Below, in pieces: positions 9,516 to 64,000 of a stretch of 64,000 nucleotides of DNA. The position numbers and the translations under genes were made by a program. The notes under the pieces are model-generated. The model was given only the letters and a program-made list of their open reading frames with translations. It was not told where the DNA came from and did no database searches. The stretch is from a virus. The stretch covers positions 9,513 through 73,512 of the IMG/VR virus record IMGVR_UViG_3300029825_000003, one strand, 5' to 3'. The stretch's first letter is position 1, and each line of letters opens with the position of its first letter.

Positions 9516-11039
9516 TTAAATTCTCATTCCACCTGCTGAAAATGCACCCATAAATGATGTTTCATAAGCCTGCTGTTGGAAAGGTTGATTAATTACAATT
9601 GCTGTAGCCGTACTTGTCACGTCTACCATATCATCGTGAGCCGCATTAGGAAAGCCTAATAACTCCGCTTCATAATCATTCAGCCAGGGAGCCCCCGCAA
9701 GGAAATAGACAACTCCTGCGGCTATCCGGGTAGCTGCCGGAATAAAACGAGTTACCTTATCTGTATCGGCATCGACCTTTTGAACGGGAAGCCCTTCTCT
9801 TATCAGAGTTTGATATAAAGAAATACCTAACCCTGTCTTTTCTACAGCTTGAAAAACAGGATGCCATCTGAGGTATTGCTGTTTGAAAAGGGGGACCTGA
9901 TCGGGAGTTTCTAATCGAGTTCGTATCAAGTCGATGAGTGCGAGTTCATTTTGTGGAGTTTGCGCCCAGGTTGCCAGGACAAAATAGTCTGCGCTCGTTT
10001 TCGTTGAGGCGGCGGGGTCACATGTCTGGAAGATCCTGCATTGTGGGAGTAAATACTGTTTATCCCCGAGATCGAGGATATTGTTTTGGAGTGTGCAGTA
10101 TTTGAATTGTTCTTTTTTTACGAGGTTACCTGCTGCTGCTGAAGGTCTTTGCTGATAGAGAGATAACCATGAATAAACAGGAAGTGTATTTTTTATTTTG
10201 TAAAGAACTTCTTCAGGGAATTTTTTTACCCATAACGACTGATTTGGAGCAGTCCTTTGATCATATTCAGGTATCACTTCTTCAGAGAGGGCAGGGAGTG
10301 TTATTATCTTACATTTATCAGTTCCTAATTCATTCTCTGAAATATCGATTACCTTTCCAATAAGATCTTCTTCGTGCCAACGAGTAGCTGTTATTAGTAC
10401 GGGAGCGTTATCTTCCCGCCGAGTCAAGAACACATCTGTATACCATTCAAAATTTTTTTCTCTGATCGTAGCACTTTCAGCTTCTTCGCGGTTCTTGAAG
10501 GGGTCGTCTATTATTCCTATCCCATCGAAACCCATACCAGTTATCCCTCCTCCAATTCCACAACTCCTATAAACCCCTTTGTGATTCACGATTTCAAAAA
10601 TATCAGAGTTTCTTAAGTATGATCCTTGTGCAGTTGTACGGACATTAGAAGAGTTTAATCGGGTTTCTGGGAAAATAAGAGAATAAATGGGGTCATCCAC
10701 CACACGTTGTACATCTCTATTCATTCGGCTGGAAAGGTCTGCACTATAAGAACATGCTATAATACTAGAATCAGGGTCTTTCCCTAATTTATAAGCCGGG
10801 AGTCTCCGTGAAACTATTTCAGACTTCCCAAATCGAGGAGGAGTTGAAACGATTAGTAATTCGTATTCACGATTGAGAAGATTGTCTATTTCATCACAAA
10901 TTAATTTATGATGCCAGTTTACGAGATAATCCGGTTTGGTAAACTTTGTAAATTCAATTAAAGATTCTGTCGCCTTTTTTCGCCTAAGCAACTCTTGAAG
11001 AATTTCACGCTTTGAAAATTGTTCTTCAATTTGTAGCAT
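9516..11039 (-). CDS. terL: Terminase large subunit
   Basis: Walker A STPPRFGKS, Walker B IIDDP, C-terminal nuclease CDPA...DY...HDDMVD. Confidence 0.95.
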   Translation of the reverse strand: MLQIEEQFSKREILQELLRRKKATESLIEFTKFTKPDYLVNWHHKLICDEIDNLLNREYELLIVSTPPRFGKSEIVSRRLPAYKLGKDPDSSIIACSYSADLSSRMNRDVQRVVDDPIYSLIFPETRLNSSNVRTTAQGSYLRNSDIFEIVNHKGVYRSCGIGGGITGMGFDGIGIIDDPFKNREEAESATIREKNFEWYTDVFLTRREDNAPVLITATRWHEEDLIGKVIDISENELGTDKCKIITLPALSEEVIPEYDQRTAPNQSLWVKKFPEEVLYKIKNTLPVYSWLSLYQQRPSAAAGNLVKKEQFKYCTLQNNILDLGDKQYLLPQCRIFQTCDPAASTKTSADYFVLATWAQTPQNELALIDLIRTRLETPDQVPLFKQQYLRWHPVFQAVEKTGLGISLYQTLIREGLPVQKVDADTDKVTRFIPAATRIAAGVVYFLAGAPWLNDYEAELLGFPNAAHDDMVDVTSTATAIVINQPFQQQAYETSFMGAFSAGGMRI

Positions 11040-12685: not shown

Positions 12686-12868
12686 TTAAATATTGAAATT
12701 TTGATTGGCTTCAAGTTCTAACTTTTTAGCAAGATACTCTTCATATGCAATTACTTGACCCCATTCAGGACATTTTCTTTTTGAAGATTCACTACCATGA
12801 CACATAATATTGTATTTTGTACATTTTGTAGAGTTATAATCAGGTTCAAAAACACATCCATTTCTCAT
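12686..12868 (-). CDS. Small Cys-rich protein
   Basis: ORF track; GGAGG SD. Confidence 0.65.
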   Translation of the reverse strand: MRNGCVFEPDYNSTKCTKYNIMCHGSESSKRKCPEWGQVIAYEEYLAKKLELEANQNFNI

Positions 12869-13050
12869 GATTTATTGCCTCCAGTTATCGATTTGTAATT
12901 AATACTAGTATATACTATTAAAAATTCAGTTTAACTTAATAAAGAAAAAAATTAAGTACAAAAACAGTATCTATCTAATCTAAAAAGAATTAATAATAGT
13001 ACTACATAGTAATATTATTAATTCGAAAGCGATATAGAAAGATGAGTTTT

Positions 13051-15123
13051 TCAGATTACCTTATAATATCCCTCCTGGGAACACAGTATATCTCCTCTCT
13101 CTTTCATTTTCCGAAGTAATTCTTCAGGTTCCTTAATCCCTTCGTTAAGACATTTCTCTATGATTTCCTCCCTTCTTACAGATTTATCTCTAGTTGTATC
13201 TTTATCAGAAATTGATTTTATTATATTGACTATCTTTCGAATCTTCCTAGATTGACTCATAGAAGTCCCACAGGCAAGTACATTCGCGTCAAGTTCACCG
13301 GTTTCCGGGTCTATTCCAACATTTTTAAGATTATTATAAAATATTTCAACTGCTGCCTTCGCGTCTTCTTCTTCAATCATATCAGATAATCTTAATCTGG
13401 CGTGCGCAGTTGCAAGCCTGTAAGCAGCTTCCAGTGTACGAGCTGTTATAGGGATTGTATCAGTTCTCCCACCTGCAGCCCCTCTTGTACCTACAAAAAA
13501 GTCTATTATCATTTCCTCGGCTTCATCGGTAAGCACCGGGAAAACATGAGTTCGAATATAAGCAATACATTTTCTTAAAAGTTCAAGGTCTATTTCTGGT
13601 TCAATAATTTCCTTTTTGCCACGTAAGGCCCCTAAAATATGTTTAGCGAGCTTCCTATCAGTATCAGGGTTCGGAGTGTCCCGTAAGATAAAAAGTAGGT
13701 CCATCCTCGAAATAAAAGCGTCTCCATGTGTGATCTGTTCAGCAATTGGTGTATATTTGTCATACCGCCCATACTTAGGATTTGCAGCCCCTAAAAAGGC
13801 AGTCCGGGTAAAAAGGTCAGCTTTCACAACTTTGTTAATATGTACTATCTGTTGCTCTAATGCTTCATGGATTGAACCTAATTGCCCCTGCTTCATTTTA
13901 TCAAGCTCATCGGCACAACATATACCACCATCCGCTAGTGTTAAGGCGCCCGGCTGAATCCACCATTTGCCGTCCATCTCGTCTTTAACAGCTCCACCTG
14001 TTAAACCGGCCTCCGAAGTGGACCTCCCTGAGAATTCTACGGCACGAGGGGAATATTTAGCTACAAACGCGAGTAATTGACTCTTTGCTACCCCCGGATC
14101 ACCTACTAACATCATATGGATATCTCCTCTTTTCCTGGTCCCATCTGGAAGGTCTATAGCCATCCCACCCACCATCTGAAGAGCAAGACCAAGTTTAACG
14201 TCTTCAAGTCCAAAAATAGAAGGAGCTATAGATCGGAGGATTTTAGCTTTCAGTACTCCTTCCGATGCCCACTGTTGAAATAAATCAGCTTCTTCTTTTG
14301 AAATCTCAATATTTTCATAATCAGAATCAGATTTCTCGATAGAATTAGCAATGAATGTAAAGTCCTGATATTTGCTTTTCTGAGTACCTATAAGTTTAAG
14401 TCGGCCTTTCAAGATCCCAGTTATTATTACTTTATCTCCTGGAGTAGTAGCCCCGGCAATATCATAAGAACACGATACATTAAGAAATTCAGGGAGTTTC
14501 CCTCTTAGATTCTCAATAGGCTCCTGAATCTTAACATATTGATGATCATATTTAACGGACTCATCTTCTTTAATTTTAAAGTGTTTTTTATTCCCACATG
14601 TAGTGTTTTCACACTCATACGGTTCAATTAAAGAGTCAACGTCATCCAACTGCATTATCTTGTTTACATGCCCACAAATCATACAAACATGTGCAGACTG
14701 TTTAAATGCTGGTCTTACTTCAGATGCCTTTGAAATAACGCACCTGATCGCTAAAAACTTTTCAAGGTGAATATCTCTCAATTTAGATATACTAACTTCT
14801 GAAGTCTGAGGGAGTCCAGTAACTCTAACTATAACATCAGGGAGATTCTTATCTAGTAAGTCAATCTCGGATATTGCTTCAGTTGCAGCCTCAAACCATT
14901 CAGAAGGAGCATTTAAAAGACGATCTGCAATTTCCTTATTATACAATGCAATATGCCTAAATTCAACATACAAACTTTTTTTATCAGGATAAATCTCACT
15001 TAAATATAATAGATCATCCCAATATTGTTTTGGTGCTAAATCTTTATGATTTTTCCCTTTATTTACGTATAACCCCCTACTAAAAAATATTTTAAGTTTC
15101 TCCTTCAGCATATCGTAATCCAT
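13051..15123 (-). CDS. mcm: MCM replicative helicase
   Basis: Zn finger CMIC...C, Walker A GDPGVAKS, Walker B ADGGICCADELDKM, IHEALEQQ, AANPKYGRY, SRMDL, TARTLE; no intein. Confidence 0.97.
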   Translation of the reverse strand: MDYDMLKEKLKIFFSRGLYVNKGKNHKDLAPKQYWDDLLYLSEIYPDKKSLYVEFRHIALYNKEIADRLLNAPSEWFEAATEAISEIDLLDKNLPDVIVRVTGLPQTSEVSISKLRDIHLEKFLAIRCVISKASEVRPAFKQSAHVCMICGHVNKIMQLDDVDSLIEPYECENTTCGNKKHFKIKEDESVKYDHQYVKIQEPIENLRGKLPEFLNVSCSYDIAGATTPGDKVIITGILKGRLKLIGTQKSKYQDFTFIANSIEKSDSDYENIEISKEEADLFQQWASEGVLKAKILRSIAPSIFGLEDVKLGLALQMVGGMAIDLPDGTRKRGDIHMMLVGDPGVAKSQLLAFVAKYSPRAVEFSGRSTSEAGLTGGAVKDEMDGKWWIQPGALTLADGGICCADELDKMKQGQLGSIHEALEQQIVHINKVVKADLFTRTAFLGAANPKYGRYDKYTPIAEQITHGDAFISRMDLLFILRDTPNPDTDRKLAKHILGALRGKKEIIEPEIDLELLRKCIAYIRTHVFPVLTDEAEEMIIDFFVGTRGAAGGRTDTIPITARTLEAAYRLATAHARLRLSDMIEEEDAKAAVEIFYNNLKNVGIDPETGELDANVLACGTSMSQSRKIRKIVNIIKSISDKDTTRDKSVRREEIIEKCLNEGIKEPEELLRKMKERGDILCSQEGYYKVI

Positions 15124-34100: not shown

Positions 34101-37100
34101 TTAAACCGCCGATTTTGTTTTAGTGGTTGAGGTTGATGTACCGTAATTGTTGACTGTGTTAACTCTATTATTGTTGTAAACCGTCATGTTTGCTTTTCTA
34201 GAAGCTGCTTCCCAATCTGTGTAACCATACACACTGCTCTTGTTGCTCCCTGAAGATTTAGAACTTGAAGAACTCCCTACTTCCATAAGTTTTGAAATTG
34301 TACTCTTAGCCTGGTTATAGACATCTACAAGTTTGTTGTAGACCCCACCAAGTCCTGAAATGGTTGTGGAGAACGAGAATCCTCCTAACGTGGAAAATGT
34401 ACTATTAGCATCCTTTCCTTTCTTATCAGCATCAAGGGTTTTTGTTCCTACAGTGCCGAGATTTCCAATAATACCCCCGAATGGAAGCCCGTTAGTAGTG
34501 CCAAAAGTAGAATTTAGAGTGCCTGCCTTTCCCGTATCATCCTGAGTATTAGAGCCAACTGTTGTTAGATTCCCCTGAATTGTGGAAAATGGAAGTGTGT
34601 TAGTGGTCCCAAAAGTAGAATTGAGTATTTCGGCTTTGGCAGTGTCGTCATACTCTAGTGTTCCTAAATTTGTAAGATTCCCGTCAATTGTTGTGAATGG
34701 AGTTGCATTTACATTATCAAGGGACTGCTTAAATAAATCTGCTTGGTTGGCTGCGTCTTTTTCTACGATAGTCATTCCAACTACTTCACCATTAACAACA
34801 GAAAACGAGACAGTACCAGCGCGGTTAAGTGCTTCTTCCCATGTGATCACGCTATCATTAGCAGTATTCACGTTTCCGTCTACAGTTGTAATTTGCCCGT
34901 TAAGGTTGTCTAATTTTGTATTATCAAGAACGACTACATCATTTCCCATATCCTTGATAAGTTTGTCAAGAGTTCCAGATTCGAGTTGAGCATCTGTTAA
35001 ACCATCTGTCAGGATTGTAATTGCTCCCCTGGTTGTATCAAAAGTAACTGCACCCATGCCTTCAAGTTTTGTAATTGCTCCATCTGCTGAAACTTTGACA
35101 AGTTCGTTATTATCATTTAGGATGATTAATTCATCATTAAGTGTCCTGATACCTCTTCTGAGGTCGTCCACGTCAACACCGGAAGTAAAAGATATTCCTG
35201 CTGTAGTTTTCGTTTGAACATCCTGCATTAAACTCTGAACAGCTTCCTGATATTTTGTAGCCGTCTCTGTCATTGAGTTAGTAACTTCATCATTTGCTGC
35301 CACAACATCATCCGACATTTCCCAAGCGTATTTACTCCACCGGGAATATGCATCTCCGGCAATTTCAGTAGTTCCATCTACAGAATCCCCTGCATCACCT
35401 GTGGAGAGTTCTAATTTCTTCGCGGCTTCTTCGTAGAAATCCGCAGATTCGTGGACGTTCTGAACGCCTTCAGACCATTTTGTTTTTATTGAATCCCATG
35501 CAGTACCGACAGCAGAAACCGCGCCGCTTAAACCTAGATCTTCAGCTATTCCTGAGAGTGTTTCTTTGAATCCGTCTATATATCCAGAGATATCCGAGAT
35601 AGCTTCGCTTATAGTTCCTGAAAGACCATACCAGACAACCCTACCCATATCATAAAGGAGATCAAACGCATCAGATACTAATCCGGTTTTTTCTTCGATG
35701 TATAGTAGAGCGACCCCTACAGCTACCGCAGGACCGGCAAAACTAATAAATCCTGCAACTACTCCAGATAAAGTCAGATCCAAAGCACCGAGAACAACCC
35801 CTACCCCATCTATAAGAATTCCAAAAGCACCGAGAGCAGTAACTACAGTTAGCCCGATTGTTGCCAGCCCTGCAAAAGCAATAACTGTTTTCTGAACCCA
35901 ATCAGGGAGCAGAGAATAAGCAGTTGATAATTCTGTAATCACCTTTACCATAGGTTTTAAGAAAAATGCAACATCTTCACCAATAGAGATTTTTAAATTT
36001 TCAAATGCTGCATTAAGCTCCCTTACTGCACCACCGAGACCCCCCTGCATCTCATCTGTCATTTGCTCCATGTAGCCGACATTATTCTCTAATTCGGCTG
36101 TGTTTTCTCGGAGTGATTGAGTGCCGGCTGTGATAATAGAGTACATCATAGGTCCGGCTCTCTGACCAAAAATAGTAACAGCGTCATTTAAAGTAAGCTG
36201 TTTATTATGAAGAACATCAATTACCTCATAGAGGTCTTTATTTGTGAGGTTTATATCATTCGCAGTAAGATTATATTTTGCTAAAGCATTTACAGCCGCG
36301 TTTGTGGGGCTGATCATCTGAACAAAAGCCTGTCTGAAATTAGTTCCTGCGGTAGTTCCCCGGATACCTGCATCCGCAGCAGCCATCATCAAAGCAGTTG
36401 TTTCTTCAAGGGAAATATTAAGAGGAGCAGCAGCTTGAGCCGCGTATTTTAGAGCAAATGCAAATTCTGAAATTTCGGCTGTAGATTCATTAGCACCCTG
36501 AGCAATGACATCCCCTATATGACCCATATCCTGAGCAGTCAGGTTATAGTTTGTCATTATGGCAGTCATGGTTTTTACAGACGTGCCTAAATCTGTAGCT
36601 CCCGCTCTCGCTAGAGCCATAACCGCAGGAAGCCCGGAATAAATTTCGTTTACAGATAGTCCAGCCTGAGCAGCTAAAACCATAGCGTTAGCCGTTTCCG
36701 TAGCCGTATAACCCATATCTGTGCCGGCTGTTCTTGCGAAAGAAGAAAGCGCCTTAAAATCCTCTTCAGATGCTCCGATAGCGGCTGAAACTCTCCTCAT
36801 AGCATCGTCAAAATCCATGAATGTACTTGTTGCTTCTGAAAACCCAGAAACAAGTTTACCCGTTGCAATTCCTGATATTGCCGTTTTAACGATGCCCATC
36901 TGAGAACAGAGGGACTGTGCTTTTGTAGCAAACCCGGAAAATGAATTTCCTAAGCTTGAAAGCCCATTTGAAATAGAAGATGTGAATGAATTTCCTATAG
37001 ATTTACCTATGTTAGATATCTTAGTTCCAGCAGAAGAAAAAGCCGAGGTGATACCAGCGAGATCTGAAGTAATAGTACTTCTTAATCCTACGGTTGCATA

Positions 37101-37127
37101 AATTGAACCTACATTCGTCTCGCCCAT
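34101..37127 (-). CDS. Tail tape measure protein
   Basis: TP901-type core (FDDAMRRVSA, ADAGIRGTTAGTNFR); 1008 aa. Confidence 0.93.
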   Translation of the reverse strand: MGETNVGSIYATVGLRSTITSDLAGITSAFSSAGTKISNIGKSIGNSFTSSISNGLSSLGNSFSGFATKAQSLCSQMGIVKTAISGIATGKLVSGFSEATSTFMDFDDAMRRVSAAIGASEEDFKALSSFARTAGTDMGYTATETANAMVLAAQAGLSVNEIYSGLPAVMALARAGATDLGTSVKTMTAIMTNYNLTAQDMGHIGDVIAQGANESTAEISEFAFALKYAAQAAAPLNISLEETTALMMAAADAGIRGTTAGTNFRQAFVQMISPTNAAVNALAKYNLTANDINLTNKDLYEVIDVLHNKQLTLNDAVTIFGQRAGPMMYSIITAGTQSLRENTAELENNVGYMEQMTDEMQGGLGGAVRELNAAFENLKISIGEDVAFFLKPMVKVITELSTAYSLLPDWVQKTVIAFAGLATIGLTVVTALGAFGILIDGVGVVLGALDLTLSGVVAGFISFAGPAVAVGVALLYIEEKTGLVSDAFDLLYDMGRVVWYGLSGTISEAISDISGYIDGFKETLSGIAEDLGLSGAVSAVGTAWDSIKTKWSEGVQNVHESADFYEEAAKKLELSTGDAGDSVDGTTEIAGDAYSRWSKYAWEMSDDVVAANDEVTNSMTETATKYQEAVQSLMQDVQTKTTAGISFTSGVDVDDLRRGIRTLNDELIILNDNNELVKVSADGAITKLEGMGAVTFDTTRGAITILTDGLTDAQLESGTLDKLIKDMGNDVVVLDNTKLDNLNGQITTVDGNVNTANDSVITWEEALNRAGTVSFSVVNGEVVGMTIVEKDAANQADLFKQSLDNVNATPFTTIDGNLTNLGTLEYDDTAKAEILNSTFGTTNTLPFSTIQGNLTTVGSNTQDDTGKAGTLNSTFGTTNGLPFGGIIGNLGTVGTKTLDADKKGKDANSTFSTLGGFSFSTTISGLGGVYNKLVDVYNQAKSTISKLMEVGSSSSSKSSGSNKSSVYGYTDWEAASRKANMTVYNNNRVNTVNNYGTSTSTTKTKSAV
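34340..34720 (-). repeat. About three ~36-aa tandem repeats near the TMP C-terminus
   Basis: PF(T/S/G)-x-I-x-GNL...(L/A)NSTF(G/S)T units. Confidence 0.7.
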
Positions 37128-48396: not shown

Positions 48397-49356
48397 TTAT
48401 ACCCCGGTGTCTCTTGCGATTGCATATGGTTCAATTGTGACAGGAGCATTATCATACCATAGCTGGATGATAGTCTCATGAGTTTCGTTATCGAAATACT
48501 TGTTAAAGTTGAAACCATAAGACAGGCTCTTACTCACTTTCTGCCCGTTCTGAATGGTAGTATATGACTCATTCATCACAGAGTACCTGGGAGAACTGTT
48601 GTAGAAAATGGTCATACCTGGGTTATTCTTGTCAAGTGCGATGATTGAGCCCTCGGAGATTCCTGAAAGAAGTCTATGAACAGTGACCCCTGCAACTGGA
48701 ATATTAAGGAGATCCGCACGCCCAGATGGATTGCCGTAGAGGTTCTGCTGTTTCCATTCATTAATATCTATGCTGGTAAGATACTTCCTTAATTCCTTGT
48801 AATTAGTTTTGTGGATAAAAAGATCTGTAAGCCTGTATGGGTAGCCTTCCCGGATAAAACAGTCTTCAAGATCTTCGATGTCGGCAATTGGCGTGGCGTT
48901 TGCGTTATCCCATGTGTAAGTTGGACCCCATGAAGTAGAGAGATCAGTCCCATTTGCATTTATTTCTGCAGATATCCTGTCGTTGTAGTCCTCAGCAATC
49001 CAGTAACCCGTTTTCCTGAAAGCTCTCTGAATTTCGTCCACTCCTTCAACATAATCAAGAGCGTCCTGGTCTATCTTGATAGCGAAACCGCGTTTGTTAA
49101 GGTTAGCTGCTTTCTGGGTGAACTGTGAGATTTCCACATAGGTCCACTGACCAGATGTAGTCAGAAGTTTCGGTTTTTCTTTTTTGGCGTCGCCAGAATC
49201 GCTCGTGGATTCCTGTTTGTAGGCAACTACTGGAGCAGTGGACTTAACCTGCGGGAATATGTCAGTCCATGCAAGCAGTGGGTTCATAATTTCGTACATT
49301 TTTGGAATGATGAACCGCTTAGTAAGAAATTCTTCATTAGGTGCTGATACGCTCAT
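48397..49356 (-). CDS. Major capsid protein (HK97 fold)
   Basis: 319 aa after protease and cement; KRGFAIKIDQDAL, ATPIADIED, DLFIH. Confidence 0.85.
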   Translation of the reverse strand: MSVSAPNEEFLTKRFIIPKMYEIMNPLLAWTDIFPQVKSTAPVVAYKQESTSDSGDAKKEKPKLLTTSGQWTYVEISQFTQKAANLNKRGFAIKIDQDALDYVEGVDEIQRAFRKTGYWIAEDYNDRISAEINANGTDLSTSWGPTYTWDNANATPIADIEDLEDCFIREGYPYRLTDLFIHKTNYKELRKYLTSIDINEWKQQNLYGNPSGRADLLNIPVAGVTVHRLLSGISEGSIIALDKNNPGMTIFYNSSPRYSVMNESYTTIQNGQKVSKSLSYGFNFNKYFDNETHETIIQLWYDNAPVTIEPYAIARDTGV

Positions 49357-58561: not shown

Positions 58562-58777
58562 ATGAGTCGAATGTTACCACTTCATACATGTGCGATATGC
58601 GGAAAAACTACTCCATGTCATAATCTTGGAGATCACTATGAATGTAATGATTGTTATGAGAGTCCATTCAAGAAGGATTGTACAAGAGTTGAAGCACATT
58701 GCAAGACAGGACAGGTATCTAGGAAGGGGTTTCTGAAGTGGGTGAAGAAGTACAGAGATGATAGGGTGAAAGTATAA
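58562..58777 (+). CDS. Small zinc-finger protein
   Basis: CAICG...CNDC. Confidence 0.65.
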   Translation: MSRMLPLHTCAICGKTTPCHNLGDHYECNDCYESPFKKDCTRVEAHCKTGQVSRKGFLKWVKKYRDDRVKV

Positions 58778-58829
58778 TGACCATGAGTGGAACGAATGGG
58801 CATATAGGTGATAAAAAAAGAGAAATTAA

Positions 58830-59177
58830 TTAAATTGTATTTTTCTTTTCTTTCATTATTTTATAAAGACTCTTATAATCTTCTTCACATTTGTAAGCAT
58901 CCACAACATCAGAAGCACTATCAAGGAACTCTATATACTTAAGTTCCTGCCCAGTGCTATCCGTAACCGCTCTTTTTTTTGCAAAAAACTTTTCTTCAAA
59001 GATCAATTCTTCTACTTGCCCTGGCTTAATATTTCCATCAATCATGTTTTTAACAGCAGTATCAACTGATGATATTCGTTCGGTAAGTCCAGAATCTGCA
59101 GAAGAAGTATCTGACATTATAAAAAATCCCCCTATCAGGATAGTAAAAACCGTACCTAATATGTATATTGGGTTCAT
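58830..59177 (-). CDS. Membrane-anchored small protein
   Basis: N-terminal TM IYILGTVFTILIGGFFIM. Confidence 0.7.
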   Translation of the reverse strand: MNPIYILGTVFTILIGGFFIMSDTSSADSGLTERISSVDTAVKNMIDGNIKPGQVEELIFEEKFFAKKRAVTDSTGQELKYIEFLDSASDVVDAYKCEEDYKSLYKIMKEKKNTI

Positions 59178-59746
59178 TCGTTCGATTCCCTCTTTATAAA
59201 TACCCTAAATTTGCAATTATGATATTTTTTTCCGGTCCAGATAACACCGTATTCATCAACTACTACCGGTTGGAATTTTTCAGGCCCTCTTGACCGTCTT
59301 AATTCGATCCAATCATTTCTATAAAATAAAATATATTTGTTATCACAGTTTTCAGTTCGTCCTTCTTTTCCGATTTGTATGTAAACCCTGACATCCATTA
59401 AGCTGTAATCTGTGCCTACTCCGATTCTATTCTCATCTATCATATGATTATCTATTTCCAACCACGTATCCAGTCCAAGCGCATAAAATTCATCTACAGC
59501 TTTTGAATCGTCATATTTTACTACACGTTTTGGCATTTGAGTAATATAGGGACAAGTCACAATATAAACATTTTCACTAGTTGACATGGTTGAATGTCTG
59601 GAACACCCAACATCTACACCGCCTGAGCAAGACCCGTACCGCCCGCTCTCCACGCATCCGGCCCCCAACTCTACCAACCAACCATCAGCAACCTTGGAAC
59701 AATGATCAGCAGATAAAAACGAAACAACTTTCTGAGATGTATTCAT
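59174..59746 (-). CDS. Hypothetical protein
   Basis: ORF track; co-oriented with the ATPase. Confidence 0.65.
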   Translation of the reverse strand: MNTSQKVVSFLSADHCSKVADGWLVELGAGCVESGRYGSCSGGVDVGCSRHSTMSTSENVYIVTCPYITQMPKRVVKYDDSKAVDEFYALGLDTWLEIDNHMIDENRIGVGTDYSLMDVRVYIQIGKEGRTENCDNKYILFYRNDWIELRRSRGPEKFQPVVVDEYGVIWTGKKYHNCKFRVFIKRESNE

Positions 59747-59783
59747 AAATTAACTCACCTTTCGCACATGTACCAAAAAAAAA

Positions 59784-62405
59784 TTAAGCTTCTAGAGCTT
59801 CCTTTGCTCCAGAAGTTGTGTTGATATTCTTGTATTTTGAAATTCTGATGTTCTCTACAAGCTTCCTAAACTCAGACCCTCTCAATACATAGAAATCCCT
59901 ACCTACTGCCTGTTTTACGTCAATTTCATTTTCTTTTTGGCATACACACATCCAGGTATCACAGAAGCGCATCTGATGGTTTTTCTGTTGTTCTAGCTCT
60001 TTGATACTCCTACTCCCAGGGTGAGCATATTCAATCCAGAGTTTCTTTCCTTCCGGAGTAACGCAGGTAACATCTGCATCATCAGTCCCCTGTCCACCGT
60101 AATGATGAATTATTACATCAGTGCAACCAACTCTTATGAGTTCCCCGGCTATTAGAGCATTTGTTATCCAATGGTCAGCAGATTCGCCGCCAATTAAAGC
60201 AGTGCCGTCTATTACTTCTTTTGTGAATCTAGATTCATCCAACCACATGACTCTTGAGAGGTCGTCAGATGGGGGCCAGAACTTCCCAACCCTCTTAAAT
60301 CCTTGAATTTCTGTATCTTCCATCTCTGAGATCCAGTCCCCTGACATAACGCCTTCCTCATCTCTGATAAATTCCAGCCCTTCTTCAAGTGTATAATTTG
60401 CCTGTGAATACATCTCTCCTGATACTTGTTCTGAGATGTCTTCATTGAAAATTACTCTCTTCTGAGTATTGCTTAACTTGACTAAAACTGGCAGTTTTAA
60501 ACCATGTTTTACGAAGTATATTTGTCTGGCTTCTTTCGGGTCTTTATTTTTCTCTTTAAGTACCTTTATGTCTTTCTCAGTAAATGAGAAATGTTTTTTG
60601 AATTCTTCTATCTCAGTATCATTCATGCTACAGAAGAATACCATAGCGTCAGTGTTTGTTTTTAAGATTGGAAGTATTTCCTTTACTCCTTCAGGGTCCT
60701 GATTATCGAGGATAATAGAGCACTTTCCAGCCCTCGCTTCCCTTAATAATTGAGGGATATATTCAGCCATACCTGCCATTTTAAGCAGGTTTGCTCCTTC
60801 ATCGAAGGCTATTATAGTTCTTTTCTTATTCTTGAAAGCTGTTGGATCTGGAGTTTTGAGTCTTGTACTTATCATATCTACAAGCAAGACAGTTATAGGG
60901 TCTTGGTATCTTTTGAGAATCCCAGATACATCTATAACCATTTTAGGAGCCGAGGGGAAGAATGTTTCGTGATTGTCAAGGAAGTTAAGGGCTTCCCCAG
61001 GTTCAAATAACGAAAGGTAACCTCTGATAGCTTCAAGACTTCTCTTATCCTTCTTATGAAGAGGATCATCAATCCATGTATCTACCTTTATAATAAGTTC
61101 TGTAAATGAAGGCCATGCTTCGCCGATAGTCCATTTTTCAATATTTTTAGGGGTGGAATCCTTAAGAACTAGCCCTGTGTCTGTATAAAGCTCCCTCATC
61201 ACCCTCTTTAAAGTACCTGACATTGCAGGACTAAAAGCGGCCCCAATAATCAAATTAAAGAAATTAATAAGTGTTTCCTTATGCCTGATAAAAGCGTTCT
61301 TCCTATCATTTAATTCATGCCCCTGAGTTTCTGGATTATAGAAACACATGAACGGGTTAAAAGATACATCTGGGATTTTAATAAGAACGCCTTCCAATGC
61401 TTGTATCATGTCAAGGTGAGAAGTCCCTAAGTCTTCTTTGGGTTCAAAAAGAATCCAATTACAATTTGCCCCAGTCGCATTCCAGAGCCAATATTGAAGA
61501 GCTGTACTTTTACCCTTCCCACTACCTCCGAACATTACTAAATGCTTGCAGTTATACGCAGGGTTTTCAGGGTTCCAATAAATAGGAACATTGGCCTTTC
61601 CTCCCAGATTGGAGAAGCCTAGTAAGATACCTTCCGTATCTAATCTTTTTACCCTGTTAATTCCTGGCCACATACAAGCTGCGACATTAGACATAACTTT
61701 AGATACACTGTTTTTTACTACCTCATTGCTTGCTAAAGAGGCCCGAAGGGCTTCCAATTGTCCTCCAAAAGGCACGTCTGTAAATACTCCATGACCTCTT
61801 AATATTGTTTGTAAATGAGTGCTATTAAATTCTACAGTCTGTCTATCATACCCGTCAACCCTTGCTATAAGGAGTTGCTTAAACTGTCTGTGCTCCCCAT
61901 CAAAAGACTGCTTTGAGAAGTTCTCTAAATCGTCACCCTGGTGATCAATCCACCGTGAATAACGACCCTTCAATTTTAGTTCAGTTGCTCTTATAAGATC
62001 CAGCTTTGCAAATTCCTTGTTTGTCTCTTTGTTCTCTTCTTCTGAAGACATTTTATAGAGAACCTGAGTAAGTGCAAAATCCATCTTTTTATTGTAAACT
62101 GTATCAAGTATTTTATTAAGAACGAATGGGTCTGCTGTCTTTCTTATCCCGCTTTCTGTCACATCAGTTTTAGCCGGACTCGCTATATAAAATAATTGTG
62201 AGTTGATTTGATGATTAAATGTAAGCCCCCTTCCGTCATCGTCTGAGTGAATAGAAGATGGGCAAGCAAGGAAAGCAGCTTCCGCAATAAGGAGCCTTTC
62301 ATGCTCTGTCTGGGTGAATTGATCATGTTTGTCTACTATCTTATTTACAATGCCTAATATTTCCCCTTTCAAGCTTCTCAATAGATGTTCTCTTAATCTT
62401 GCCAT
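59784..62405 (-). CDS. virB4: VirB4/TraG-like AAA+ ATPase with C-terminal nuclease-like domain
   Basis: HLVMFGGSGKGKST, ILFEPKED, SFNPF, IIAFDEGANLL, LLREAR...LDNQ. Confidence 0.85.
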   Translation of the reverse strand: MARLREHLLRSLKGEILGIVNKIVDKHDQFTQTEHERLLIAEAAFLACPSSIHSDDDGRGLTFNHQINSQLFYIASPAKTDVTESGIRKTADPFVLNKILDTVYNKKMDFALTQVLYKMSSEEENKETNKEFAKLDLIRATELKLKGRYSRWIDHQGDDLENFSKQSFDGEHRQFKQLLIARVDGYDRQTVEFNSTHLQTILRGHGVFTDVPFGGQLEALRASLASNEVVKNSVSKVMSNVAACMWPGINRVKRLDTEGILLGFSNLGGKANVPIYWNPENPAYNCKHLVMFGGSGKGKSTALQYWLWNATGANCNWILFEPKEDLGTSHLDMIQALEGVLIKIPDVSFNPFMCFYNPETQGHELNDRKNAFIRHKETLINFFNLIIGAAFSPAMSGTLKRVMRELYTDTGLVLKDSTPKNIEKWTIGEAWPSFTELIIKVDTWIDDPLHKKDKRSLEAIRGYLSLFEPGEALNFLDNHETFFPSAPKMVIDVSGILKRYQDPITVLLVDMISTRLKTPDPTAFKNKKRTIIAFDEGANLLKMAGMAEYIPQLLREARAGKCSIILDNQDPEGVKEILPILKTNTDAMVFFCSMNDTEIEEFKKHFSFTEKDIKVLKEKNKDPKEARQIYFVKHGLKLPVLVKLSNTQKRVIFNEDISEQVSGEMYSQANYTLEEGLEFIRDEEGVMSGDWISEMEDTEIQGFKRVGKFWPPSDDLSRVMWLDESRFTKEVIDGTALIGGESADHWITNALIAGELIRVGCTDVIIHHYGGQGTDDADVTCVTPEGKKLWIEYAHPGSRSIKELEQQKNHQMRFCDTWMCVCQKENEIDVKQAVGRDFYVLRGSEFRKLVENIRISKYKNINTTSGAKEALEA

Positions 62406-63256
62406 TACACCACCTGCCCCGGAAGAATACCATAAGTTACATGACCGTAAAACATGCCTAATATTTTATCTTCAGTCTCAAGAACTTCGCTTCCAATTTC
62501 CATATCAGATAAGATGTCCTGAACTCCACTGACAAGAATATCCAGCTTCCCTTTTGCCTTAACAGGATTTGCAGTATAATCGAGAAGGATAAGCATATGA
62601 TTCTCAGCTGACTTTGAATCCGCTTCTTCACACATCAACTGAAACTCAAACATGCTGTCTCTTACAATTTGAGGAATTCTGTTTCGGTGCAGTTCTTCTC
62701 TTATTGGTTTTGCATAGTCTGTAAGATCCGATCGAACATGTAAAAAGGTTTTAATTAGGGTCCGGTCTTCGTTTCCTATGAACATTCTTTCTATATTTTC
62801 TGCAAATACTTCCATATCTTCTGGCTGGAAACTGTGTATTTTAATCATCACTCCCCAATTATGAGGCCTTTCTTTTGTGAAGAAATATTCAATATATTTA
62901 CCGTCATGTATTTTTTTAATGTGAGTTAGATTCCTTGCTTTTTTAAGGCCATTTATTCCATGTTTTTCAATGTAGTCTTCTCCTTTGTAGATCTGTTTCA
63001 GGAATCTGCACCAACATTCAAAATGATAAAGGTTAGACGCACTGCTGGCAATATATATAAAAAATAATATCTCAATAACTGCCTGTCCAATTGCAACATG
63101 AACAGCCGTGTTCGGCCCTAAAACAAAAGTACCTATAAGAAACGTAGGCATTAACAGAAACGCTAAGAGTATAGCTAAATTCTGTTGGTTTTTCTGATAC
63201 CCATAAATAGTAGGGTTAAAGTTTCTGGTTACAGTCATTGGTCCATTATCTGCCAT
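62405..63256 (-). CDS. VirB3/PrgI-like membrane protein
   Basis: Two N-terminal TM helices then soluble domain; directly upstream of the VirB4-like gene. Confidence 0.6.
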   Translation of the reverse strand: MADNGPMTVTRNFNPTIYGYQKNQQNLAILLAFLLMPTFLIGTFVLGPNTAVHVAIGQAVIEILFFIYIASSASNLYHFECWCRFLKQIYKGEDYIEKHGINGLKKARNLTHIKKIHDGKYIEYFFTKERPHNWGVMIKIHSFQPEDMEVFAENIERMFIGNEDRTLIKTFLHVRSDLTDYAKPIREELHRNRIPQIVRDSMFEFQLMCEEADSKSAENHMLILLDYTANPVKAKGKLDILVSGVQDILSDMEIGSEVLETEDKILGMFYGHVTYGILPGQVV

Positions 63257-64000
63257 GTTTATTCCCTCTAATTCTGTTCATTTCTCTTGAAATTTTCATA
63301 ACCTTGTATCCAGCCCCGACTAAATATTGAGTGAAAATTTTAATTGTAATCCAAATCAAAGGACCTAAAACCATAATTAAGGCAGTTACAAAAGTTAGGA
63401 AGGAAGTGATTTGCATAACCCCTATTGATGCAAGCACTTTACCTGCTGTAGTTTCATGCTCTGCTATGTTCTGTACAGCCTTAGCTGAATACATTAAAAC
63501 AAGCGGGCGCATGAAAAGCACCGATATAAACCACGCTGATAAAATCTGAGCTACATATGTGAATAATCCCCAGGGGATTATGAATAAGATAATTACTTTC
63601 AGAATGTTTGCAGTATATTCATTGATGTATTGAATCCTAAGTGCGAATAAACCGCTATTAAGTGCATAAGATACTGTCTCGAATAACCATATTACAGAAG
63701 TGTCAGCAGATAATCCGATATATTCTAAAGAGTTTTCCATATATCCAGAAGACCACAACTGCTCCCATGTGAAGAGAGTATCCAGAATGAAAAAAGCCAT
63801 GAACGGTGCAAGTGCTAAGACTATAGTCATTTTAAATGAAAACGAATAGTCAAAGAATCCGTCCCTTCCTGTAAAATTATTATTTAAATCTGCTATTTTT
63901 TCAGGATATTTATCTTGTGCTATGTCCATAGCCACACATAGAACAATAATCAAAAGACTAAATATGTAATAATAAATTAAATCGTGAGTAAATGTATCCT
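63246..64000 (-). CDS. VirB6/TrbL-like polytopic membrane protein (5' end beyond window)
   Basis: Many TM helices; frame open with no stop to position 64000; typical position. Confidence 0.55.
   Translation of the reverse strand, partial: DTFTHDLIYYYIFSLLIIVLCVAMDIAQDKYPEKIADLNNNFTGRDGFFDYSFSFKMTIVLALAPFMAFFILDTLFTWEQLWSSGYMENSLEYIGLSADTSVIWLFETVSYALNSGLFALRIQYINEYTANILKVIILFIIPWGLFTYVAQILSAWFISVLFMRPLVLMYSAKAVQNIAEHETTAGKVLASIGVMQITSFLTFVTALIMVLGPLIWITIKIFTQYLVGAGYKVMKISREMNRIRGNKHGR

Follow-up and report, generated by a model that had tools for sequence, protein, structure and literature searches.

The window analyzed here is a 64,000-nt stretch of DNA comprising bases 9513-73512 (the last 64 kb) of the 73,512-bp IMG/VR virus record IMGVR_UViG_3300029825_000003. 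Its distal end is occupied by a minus-strand operon of seven conserved genes (g1 to g7) and a 41-codon open reading frame (ORF), which together form a cassette of ~8.3 kb, or 11% of the genome, resembling a type IV secretion system (T4SS). The operon starts in a divergent, A/T-rich intergenic region, runs across the end of the record and stops at a short convergent gap. Its features are given below in the order of transcription, with coordinates of the window unless contig L001 or L028 is named.

L001 986-3274, minus strand: g1, 762 aa, with a signal peptide, a beta-helix/Disaggr_assoc domain (1.5e-32) and a C-terminal hydrophobic anchor.
L001 503-892, minus strand: g2, 129 aa, with a signal peptide, an acidic linker and two hydrophobic helices separated by a conserved G..SASDG loop.
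L028 8011-8136 (about 369-494 of the contig): a 41-aa ORF with a single transmembrane segment, between g2 and g3, with its own AGGTGA ribosome-binding site.
63246..64000 (C-terminal 250 codons), wrapping to L001 2-364, and in full at L028:8141-9160, minus strand: g3, 339 aa, a polytopic protein in the VirB6 position.
62405..63256, minus strand: g4, 283 aa, a transmembrane hairpin (residues 27-45 and 51-69) followed by a ~210-aa cytoplasmic domain.
59784..62405, minus strand: g5, an 873-aa VirB4-like ATPase.
61506..61529, minus strand: Walker A motif GGSGKGKS of g5 (residues 293-300).
g5 residues 531-537: Walker B motif IIAFDEG.
59787..60398, minus strand: C-terminal domain of g5 (residues 670-873), a candidate PD-(D/E)xK (restriction-endonuclease-like) fold.
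59174..59746, minus strand: g6, 190 aa, a soluble protein whose N-terminus is variable and rich in Cys and whose C-terminal domain (~120 aa) is conserved; a family search gave no match.
58830..59177, minus strand: g7, 115 aa, with an N-terminal transmembrane anchor and a helical ectodomain of ~90 aa.
58778..58829: the convergent gap, 52 nt and A/T-rich, with oligo-T runs on both strands, read directly from the sequence.

Within the window, the genes are tightly coupled, with overlaps of 11 nt, 1 nt (between g4 and g5) and 4 nt and a single gap of 37 nt. The original prediction, made from the window alone, had described five minus-strand ORFs (polytopic, two-transmembrane, ATPase, unknown and anchored) that converge on a run of small viral genes across ~50 bp. 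All five were found where it had placed them, and the separation was measured at 52 nt; the plus-strand neighbor (58562-58777) is convergent with g7. The topology predicted for g3 comprises a signal peptide, an ectodomain of ~70 aa and about 5-6 transmembrane segments. At 19-32% identity, g7 holds the same position in all relatives. The g6 gene is kept in 11 loci, its N-terminal half differing between relatives. The 41-aa ORF is called in one assembly and in close relatives only; in more distant relatives, g2 abuts g3. The C-terminus of g1 (DPF, a hydrophobic stretch and KRQ) appears to resemble archaeal sorting signals of the PGF-CTERM type.

The genome that carries the cassette is complete. 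CheckV assigns the record a completeness of 100%, and the last 99 nt of the contig (window 63902-64000) are a copy of its first 98 nt (L001 1-98), with the final base mismatched. The end junction is traversed by a 54-kb ENA contig that is 100% identical (L028) and by four Logan contigs from other runs that are 99.5-99.9% identical (L029-L032). The end overlap and the junction-crossing contigs therefore show that the genome, with the cassette inside, is either circular, at 73,413 bp, or circularly permuted, in agreement with the circular genome that had been proposed. IMG/VR labels this closed genome "linear," probably because the final base of the overlap is mismatched. The following genes were identified elsewhere on the molecule.

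9516-11039: large terminase TerL, T4-type (PHROG, 2.8e-91).
13051-15123: MCM helicase.
34101-37127: tape-measure protein (1.1e-80).
48397-49356: major head protein (3e-10).
A 602-aa portal candidate, assigned by position only.
L001 7909-8547, plus strand: a 212-aa serine recombinase of the resolvase/invertase type (Resolvase, 1.3e-28, plus a helix-turn-helix domain), the sole recombinase in the genome.

Further virion genes encode a Mu F-like protein, a scaffold protein, head-tail proteins, tail proteins and a tail-spike. With a terminase, an HK97-type capsid, tail genes and the positional portal candidate on one closed molecule, the virus belongs to the Caudoviricetes. The GC content ranges from 33 to 44% across the genome, and composition is unbroken at the cassette. 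We found no direct repeats flanking the cassette that resemble attachment (att) sites and no tyrosine integrase (PF00589) in the complete genome, and the stretch from the cassette to the capsid genes was free of tRNA, integrase and host genes. These results bear out the claim that the cassette sits inside a tailed-virus genome, uninterrupted by such features before the capsid genes. The serine recombinase is compatible with episome multimer resolution or DNA inversion, and its combination with an MCM helicase in the absence of an integrase is compatible with an episomal state.

The virus probably infects Methanosarcina, as had been suggested. A disaggregatase-related domain typical of Methanosarcina occurs in three proteins of the genome, one related contig was placed in a Methanosarcina metagenome-assembled genome (MAG), and one g3 homologue is labeled Methanosarcina. 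Short contigs bearing the cassette (L022, L023 and L024; proteins P0191 and P0193) were binned in MAGs labeled Gammaproteobacteria, Patescibacteria, Bacilli, Parabacteroides and Porphyromonadaceae; these bacterial labels probably reflect binning contamination.

The motor of the cassette is g5. In NCBIfam, it matched VirB4/TraC models only (VirB4_plasma, 6.8e-16; TIGR00929, 2.8e-12). When its AlphaFold 2 (AF2) model (pLDDT 77) was searched with Foldseek, the best match was TrwK/VirB4 of plasmid R388, at E 1e-18 across ~625 columns; the C-domain of VirB4 from Thermoanaerobacter pseudethanolicus aligned with a TMt of 0.75-0.78, and HerA (1e-10) and TrwB (5e-8) were weaker. As modeled, g5 is closer to VirB4 than to HerA, VirD4 or FtsK. 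Sequence identity to these best structural matches (PDB 7O43 and 8RTD for R388; 4AG5 for T. pseudethanolicus) is 12-16%; compared with them, g5 has an N-terminal region that is ~150 aa shorter and an extra C-terminal domain of ~200 aa. Both nucleotide-binding motifs are preserved. Across 18 homologues, Walker A is invariant at G293-G298 (K297 excepted), K299 and T301, with S or T at position 300, and Walker B is invariant throughout. No other protein combines the strict Walker A pattern with a VirB4-type context.

A full-library profile search with g5 returned 486 relatives at E ≤ 1e-3. Many are 790-900 aa long and match through the C-terminal domain, and some bear AAA_10, P-loop_TraG, TraC_F_IV or PrgI domains; one of them, P0113, has a PrgI + TraC_F_IV + P-loop_TraG architecture. 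A distant relative of 1259 aa (P0078) has a LAGLIDADG/Hom_end homing-endonuclease insertion, intein-like, inside the ATPase. No PDB sequence was matched by the whole-ATPase profile at E 0.01, and no close relative of g5 was found in GenBank phage records or among PLSDB plasmids. PHROG labels g5 "terminase" (2.3e-8). We dismissed a role as packaging ATPase because a normal T4-type TerL is present and because the best structural matches of g5 are VirB4 proteins.

The additional C-terminal domain of g5 (residues 670-873) is kept in all relatives. Alignments of these relatives revealed invariant E741, D776, D778 and E792 and near-invariant K808 and Q811. In the AF2 model of the domain (pLDDT 75, pTM 0.77), the core is alpha-beta-beta-beta-alpha-beta, and the invariant acidic residues are placed as in PD-(D/E)xK nucleases. 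The top fold matches were weak and almost all PD-(D/E)xK nucleases. Foldseek gave E values of 0.045-0.8 to VC1899, HindIII, NucS, LmuA, Hjc, Mus81 and RecU, and VIA gave Z scores of 7.3 to VC1899, 7.0 to Can2 and 5.9 to Hjc, with CheY-like folds intermixed. On the basis of this model, the domain is probably nuclease-like, with a putative activity. A Pfam search of the domain that included CoiA produced no match, leaving a CoiA-like identity without sequence support, and comparison of the domain with PDB sequences yielded nothing usable either. The domain also occurs in relatives that bear a coupling protein and is therefore not simply a substitute for one.

The genes upstream of the motor connect the cassette to a conjugation-type locus. 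Longer relatives of g5 (about 1070-1090 aa) are extended at the N-terminus. In hhalign, the g4 family (A3) matched the first ~270 aa of a fused protein of 1066 aa, P0074, with a probability of 96% (E 4.6e-9); g4 and g5 are therefore the separate parts of what is, in its fused form, a single VirB3/VirB4-type protein. Atlas leads for g4 were TraC-like and CD1110-type VirB4 N-domains, with TM scores of 0.40-0.56. Element L026, in which P0074 resides, also has genes for a VirD4/TraG coupling protein, a methyltransferase, ArdC and toxin-antitoxin systems. Immediately upstream of P0074 lies a gene for a 303-aa membrane protein, whose family (A8) matched the g3 family (A6) with a probability of 96.9% (E 2e-10) over 200 collinear columns. 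Given these matches to L026, the g3-g4-g5 block as a whole has a homologous counterpart within a conjugation-type locus. An Atlas feature search gave no usable match for g3, and hhalign comparisons of g2 with a 120-aa protein and of g3 with a 302-aa protein of the same element gave no match.

The VirB4 matches of g5 and the homology of g3 and g4 to L026 uphold the assignment of a type IV secretion or conjugation-type module. The names "VirB6" and "VirB3" fared less evenly: topology, gene order and homology to genes of one element with a type IV coupling protein (T4CP) favor them, and matches to the named families are lacking. Extending the contig beyond the window added two genes to the set, the disaggregatase-like g1 and g2, whose predicted topology (signal peptide, two hydrophobic helices and a conserved loop) is pilin-like. 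The extension did not yield a coupling protein, a relaxase of the two families searched, a tyrosine integrase or att repeats. A VirB2/VirB6 relationship of the kind reported for other systems was not detected when g2 and g3 were compared by hhalign.

We then considered how firmly the cassette is linked to viruses. It is syntenic in at least 10 independent, diverged contigs, with ATPase identities of 37-87%, and tailed-virus structural genes lie beside it in five: the present genome, L008, L012/G002, G003 and G001. The linkage sought in other genomes was thus found, in relatives whose ATPases are 52-73% identical to g5 and in which the cassette adjoins different structural modules. In L008, the cassette adjoins terminase, portal and Mu F genes; in L012/G002, it is followed directly by head-tail and tape-measure genes. 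In G003, the cassette has a beta-helix/holin-like pair on one side and head-tail and tail genes on the other, and all of these genes share a strand. In G001, whose capsid is 65% identical, the cassette lies between the same pair and scaffold and capsid genes. A search for TerL in four IMG/VR relatives found none; those records are fragments.

A more distant clade (37-40% identity) is represented by contigs of 25 kb or less, in which no structural genes were seen and primase-polymerase, DNA polymerase A or Orc1/Cdc6 genes are neighbors. In two of these contigs (L033 14733-18605 and L005 10736-13543), primase-polymerase and helicase genes come after the cassette, and L033 also has DNA polymerase A, which differs from the MCM-based module of the present genome. 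G004 (IMG/VR 3300038316_000287), also of this clade, has a short tyrosine-integrase-like ORF at 12728-13216 (PF00589, 1.1e-8) directly after the cassette, unlike the present genome. A degraded copy occurs at L009 6867-13260, with g1 reduced to a C-terminal fragment and g3 split into two ORFs. Its flanks contain glycosyltransferase, TatA and NikR-like genes, and the copy may be what is left of a cassette in a cellular replicon.

The "linear" label, the degraded copy with cell-like flanks and the lack of structural genes on the short contigs of the distant clade would all suit an artifact or a recent passenger, that is, a chimeric assembly or a fragment of a plasmid or integrative and conjugative element (ICE) caught in one virus. 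Such an origin is extremely improbable. To check for misassembly, we turned to five other contigs, of which four came from other runs; all five cross both junctions. Counting diverged genomes or fragments, at least five hold the cassette beside different structural modules, and the present genome shows neither att-like repeats nor a shift in composition. Finally, in near-identical variants, the 9 changes that fall in g3, g4 and g5 are all synonymous (0 non-synonymous), and every ORF is intact. Contigs nearly identical to the present one occur in runs SRR1561989, SRR25909829, SRR19743519, SRR24199745 and SRR28820823. The most variable cassette gene among variants of 99.5-99.9% identity is g6 (5 synonymous and 3-4 non-synonymous changes), the only one with several non-synonymous changes. 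We consider it very likely that a T4SS-type machine is integral to this virus.

The small anchored protein g7 has the topology of the exclusion proteins of conjugative elements, which are small and membrane-anchored. The cassette might then serve superinfection exclusion or defense against viruses or conjugative elements, with g7 as the exclusion factor that the original prediction had suggested. We regard this role as highly improbable, since an 8.3-kb cassette with an active-looking motor far exceeds what exclusion needs and since g7 is conserved together with the other cassette genes and does not vary on its own. No evidence of defense, from PADLOC or otherwise, came to light, and no search aimed at it was made.

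From gene content, transfer of DNA from cell to cell is plausible, and our leading reading, which we hold tentatively and at rather less than an even chance, is that the cassette moves DNA between cells in either direction. Several observations weigh against it. Neither a coupling protein (PF02534 and PF10412; controls positive) nor an FtsK-like second ATPase was found in the complete genome, and relaxases PF03432 and PF03389, the only two relaxase families searched, were likewise absent from it; an oriT was not recognized either, although no search aimed at it was made. To our knowledge, no characterized conjugation system exports DNA without a coupling protein, and element L026, the closest relative outside viruses, does carry one. 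The g5 protein scores far under the curated cut-offs of TIGR00929 and NF045975 (45.7 bits versus 643 and 57.1 versus 590); we file it as "VirB4-like" because these scores mark a very distant family member. The nuclease fold call is weak (Z < 8, Foldseek E > 0.01), and motif III of the domain reads E-Y-[AE]-H, without the canonical E-x-K lysine. Pfam and PDB sequence searches of g2, g3 and g4 gave nothing usable, including with the TrbL/VirB6 Pfam family for g3 and solved pilins for g2. Lastly, the cassettes of G001 and G003 share their orientation with the structural genes and a candidate lysis cassette, which would also fit a late role other than transfer.

This co-orientation and the missing coupling protein and relaxases also support the main rival, namely that the machine is real and moves no DNA. 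It could secrete protein, assemble an adhesive pilus or remodel the matrix or cell surface, the VirB4 motor powering assembly only; methanochondroitin might be loosened for virion release or spread, or cells might be held together. Some T4SS without VirD4, such as the Ptl system of Bordetella, secrete protein, and the matrix depolymerase encoded by the first gene of the cassette has paralogues in the tail-spike and in putative lysis enzymes of the genome. Against these points, g1 has a Sec-type signal peptide of its own, and its export therefore needs no T4SS; conservation of a nuclease-like domain in the motor suggests that the substrate is a nucleic acid; and the archaeal relatives of known function that lack a T4CP, represented by Ced, move DNA (PMC9905601). 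We judge a machine that moves no DNA to be somewhat unlikely.

The Ced system of Sulfolobales and Aeropyrum and the Ted system of Thermoproteales import DNA and have no T4CP or relaxase, and archaeal conjugative plasmids are also without recognizable relaxases (Beltran et al. 2023, PMC9905601). The likeness of the cassette to Ced and Ted is one of composition only. All are archaeal; Ced and Ted join a VirB4-like ATPase to a VirB6-like polytopic protein and a VirB2-like pilin, and in the cassette g5 is accompanied by a polytopic protein in the VirB6 position and by the pilin-like g2, again without a T4CP or the tested relaxases. TedC, like g2, has a cleavable signal peptide. In contrast, Ced and Ted are chromosomal and owned by the host, whereas the cassette is carried by a tailed virus and has a split VirB3-like/VirB4 motor, a nuclease-like C-terminal domain and an anchored matrix depolymerase. 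Being virus-borne, it would not count as an orthologue of theirs in any event. The shared composition raises the possibility that the cassette imports DNA from neighbors or lysed cells, in the manner of Ced or ComB, for recombination or as a source of nucleotides, and does not export the viral genome. The nuclease domain of the motor could process such incoming DNA. However, the benefit of import for spread of the virus is not obvious, no sequence homology to Ced or Ted components was seen, with no search aimed at it, and the closest non-viral relative of the cassette sits in an element that bears a coupling protein. Import of this kind is quite improbable.

The conjugative T4SS of monoderms and archaea (mating-pair formation types FA and FATA, including PrgI-PrgJ of pCF10 and the CD1110-type ICE ATPases) share more with the cassette: the VirB4 fold and motifs, the occurrence of VirB3-VirB4 in fused or split form, a homologous polytopic partner and an envelope hydrolase encoded in the operon. 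They differ in that the replicon here is a virus whose genome is without a T4CP or the relaxases PF03432 and PF03389, and in that the hydrolase is a beta-helix protein of the disaggregatase type and not a peptidoglycan hydrolase. The original prediction had called the element a virus-ICE hybrid. That wording is unsupported because the coupling protein, the tested relaxases, a tyrosine integrase and flanking att repeats were not found. Phage-plasmids move as phages, with a review describing no conjugation by them, and in phage-ICE tandems each of the two separable elements has an integrase of its own (PMC7969092, PMC12282955 and PMC13651849). The present genome is like both in that virion genes and plasmid- or ICE-type functions occur in one element. 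It differs from them in that the T4SS-type genes are embedded in a single archaeal virus genome and the DNA-processing half is missing.

Returning to DNA movement as the leading reading, we propose the following mechanism. The g2 protein would serve as a VirB2-type pilin or channel subunit. Membrane-anchored g1 would locally digest the methanochondroitin matrix of Methanosarcina, much as cell-wall hydrolases do in bacterial systems (VirB1, PrgK and CwlT). At the surface of a cell that is infected or in the carrier state, the apparatus would form a conduit, and DNA could pass through this conduit to or from an adjacent cell of the aggregate, with the motor's nuclease-like domain as a candidate for DNA processing. 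Because a coupling protein and the tested relaxases are absent, the mechanism would depart from the canonical one and resemble Ced/Ted in its composition. Taken as a whole, the explanation of an intact T4SS-type envelope machine owned by the virus, including the step in which it acts as a DNA conduit, comes close to an even call without quite reaching it. Export of the viral genome through the cassette is, by our estimate, unlikely. Equally doubtful is the fuller picture of two transmission routes in one lineage of archaeal tailed viruses, in which virions with matrix-degrading tail-spikes would serve long-range spread and a T4SS-type conduit, with a nuclease-bearing motor and no coupling protein, would pass the genome between neighboring cells of Methanosarcina aggregates.

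In full-text literature searches, we found no account of an archaeal tailed virus with a T4SS-type module. Gene transfer by viruses and gene transfer by conjugative elements are treated as two distinct routes, and a conserved conjugation-type machine in complete tailed-virus genomes would blur this divide in archaea. The cassette also outlines a compact archaeal T4SS-type system that lacks a coupling protein and the tested relaxases and has a split VirB3/VirB4 motor with a nuclease-like domain and an envelope hydrolase that does not act on peptidoglycan; such a system could help explain how DNA is processed by Ced-like and archaeal conjugation systems. Methanosarcina is a key methanogen of digesters and soils, and, if our reading is true, the cassette would be a testable candidate for the movement of DNA inside its matrix-enclosed aggregates.

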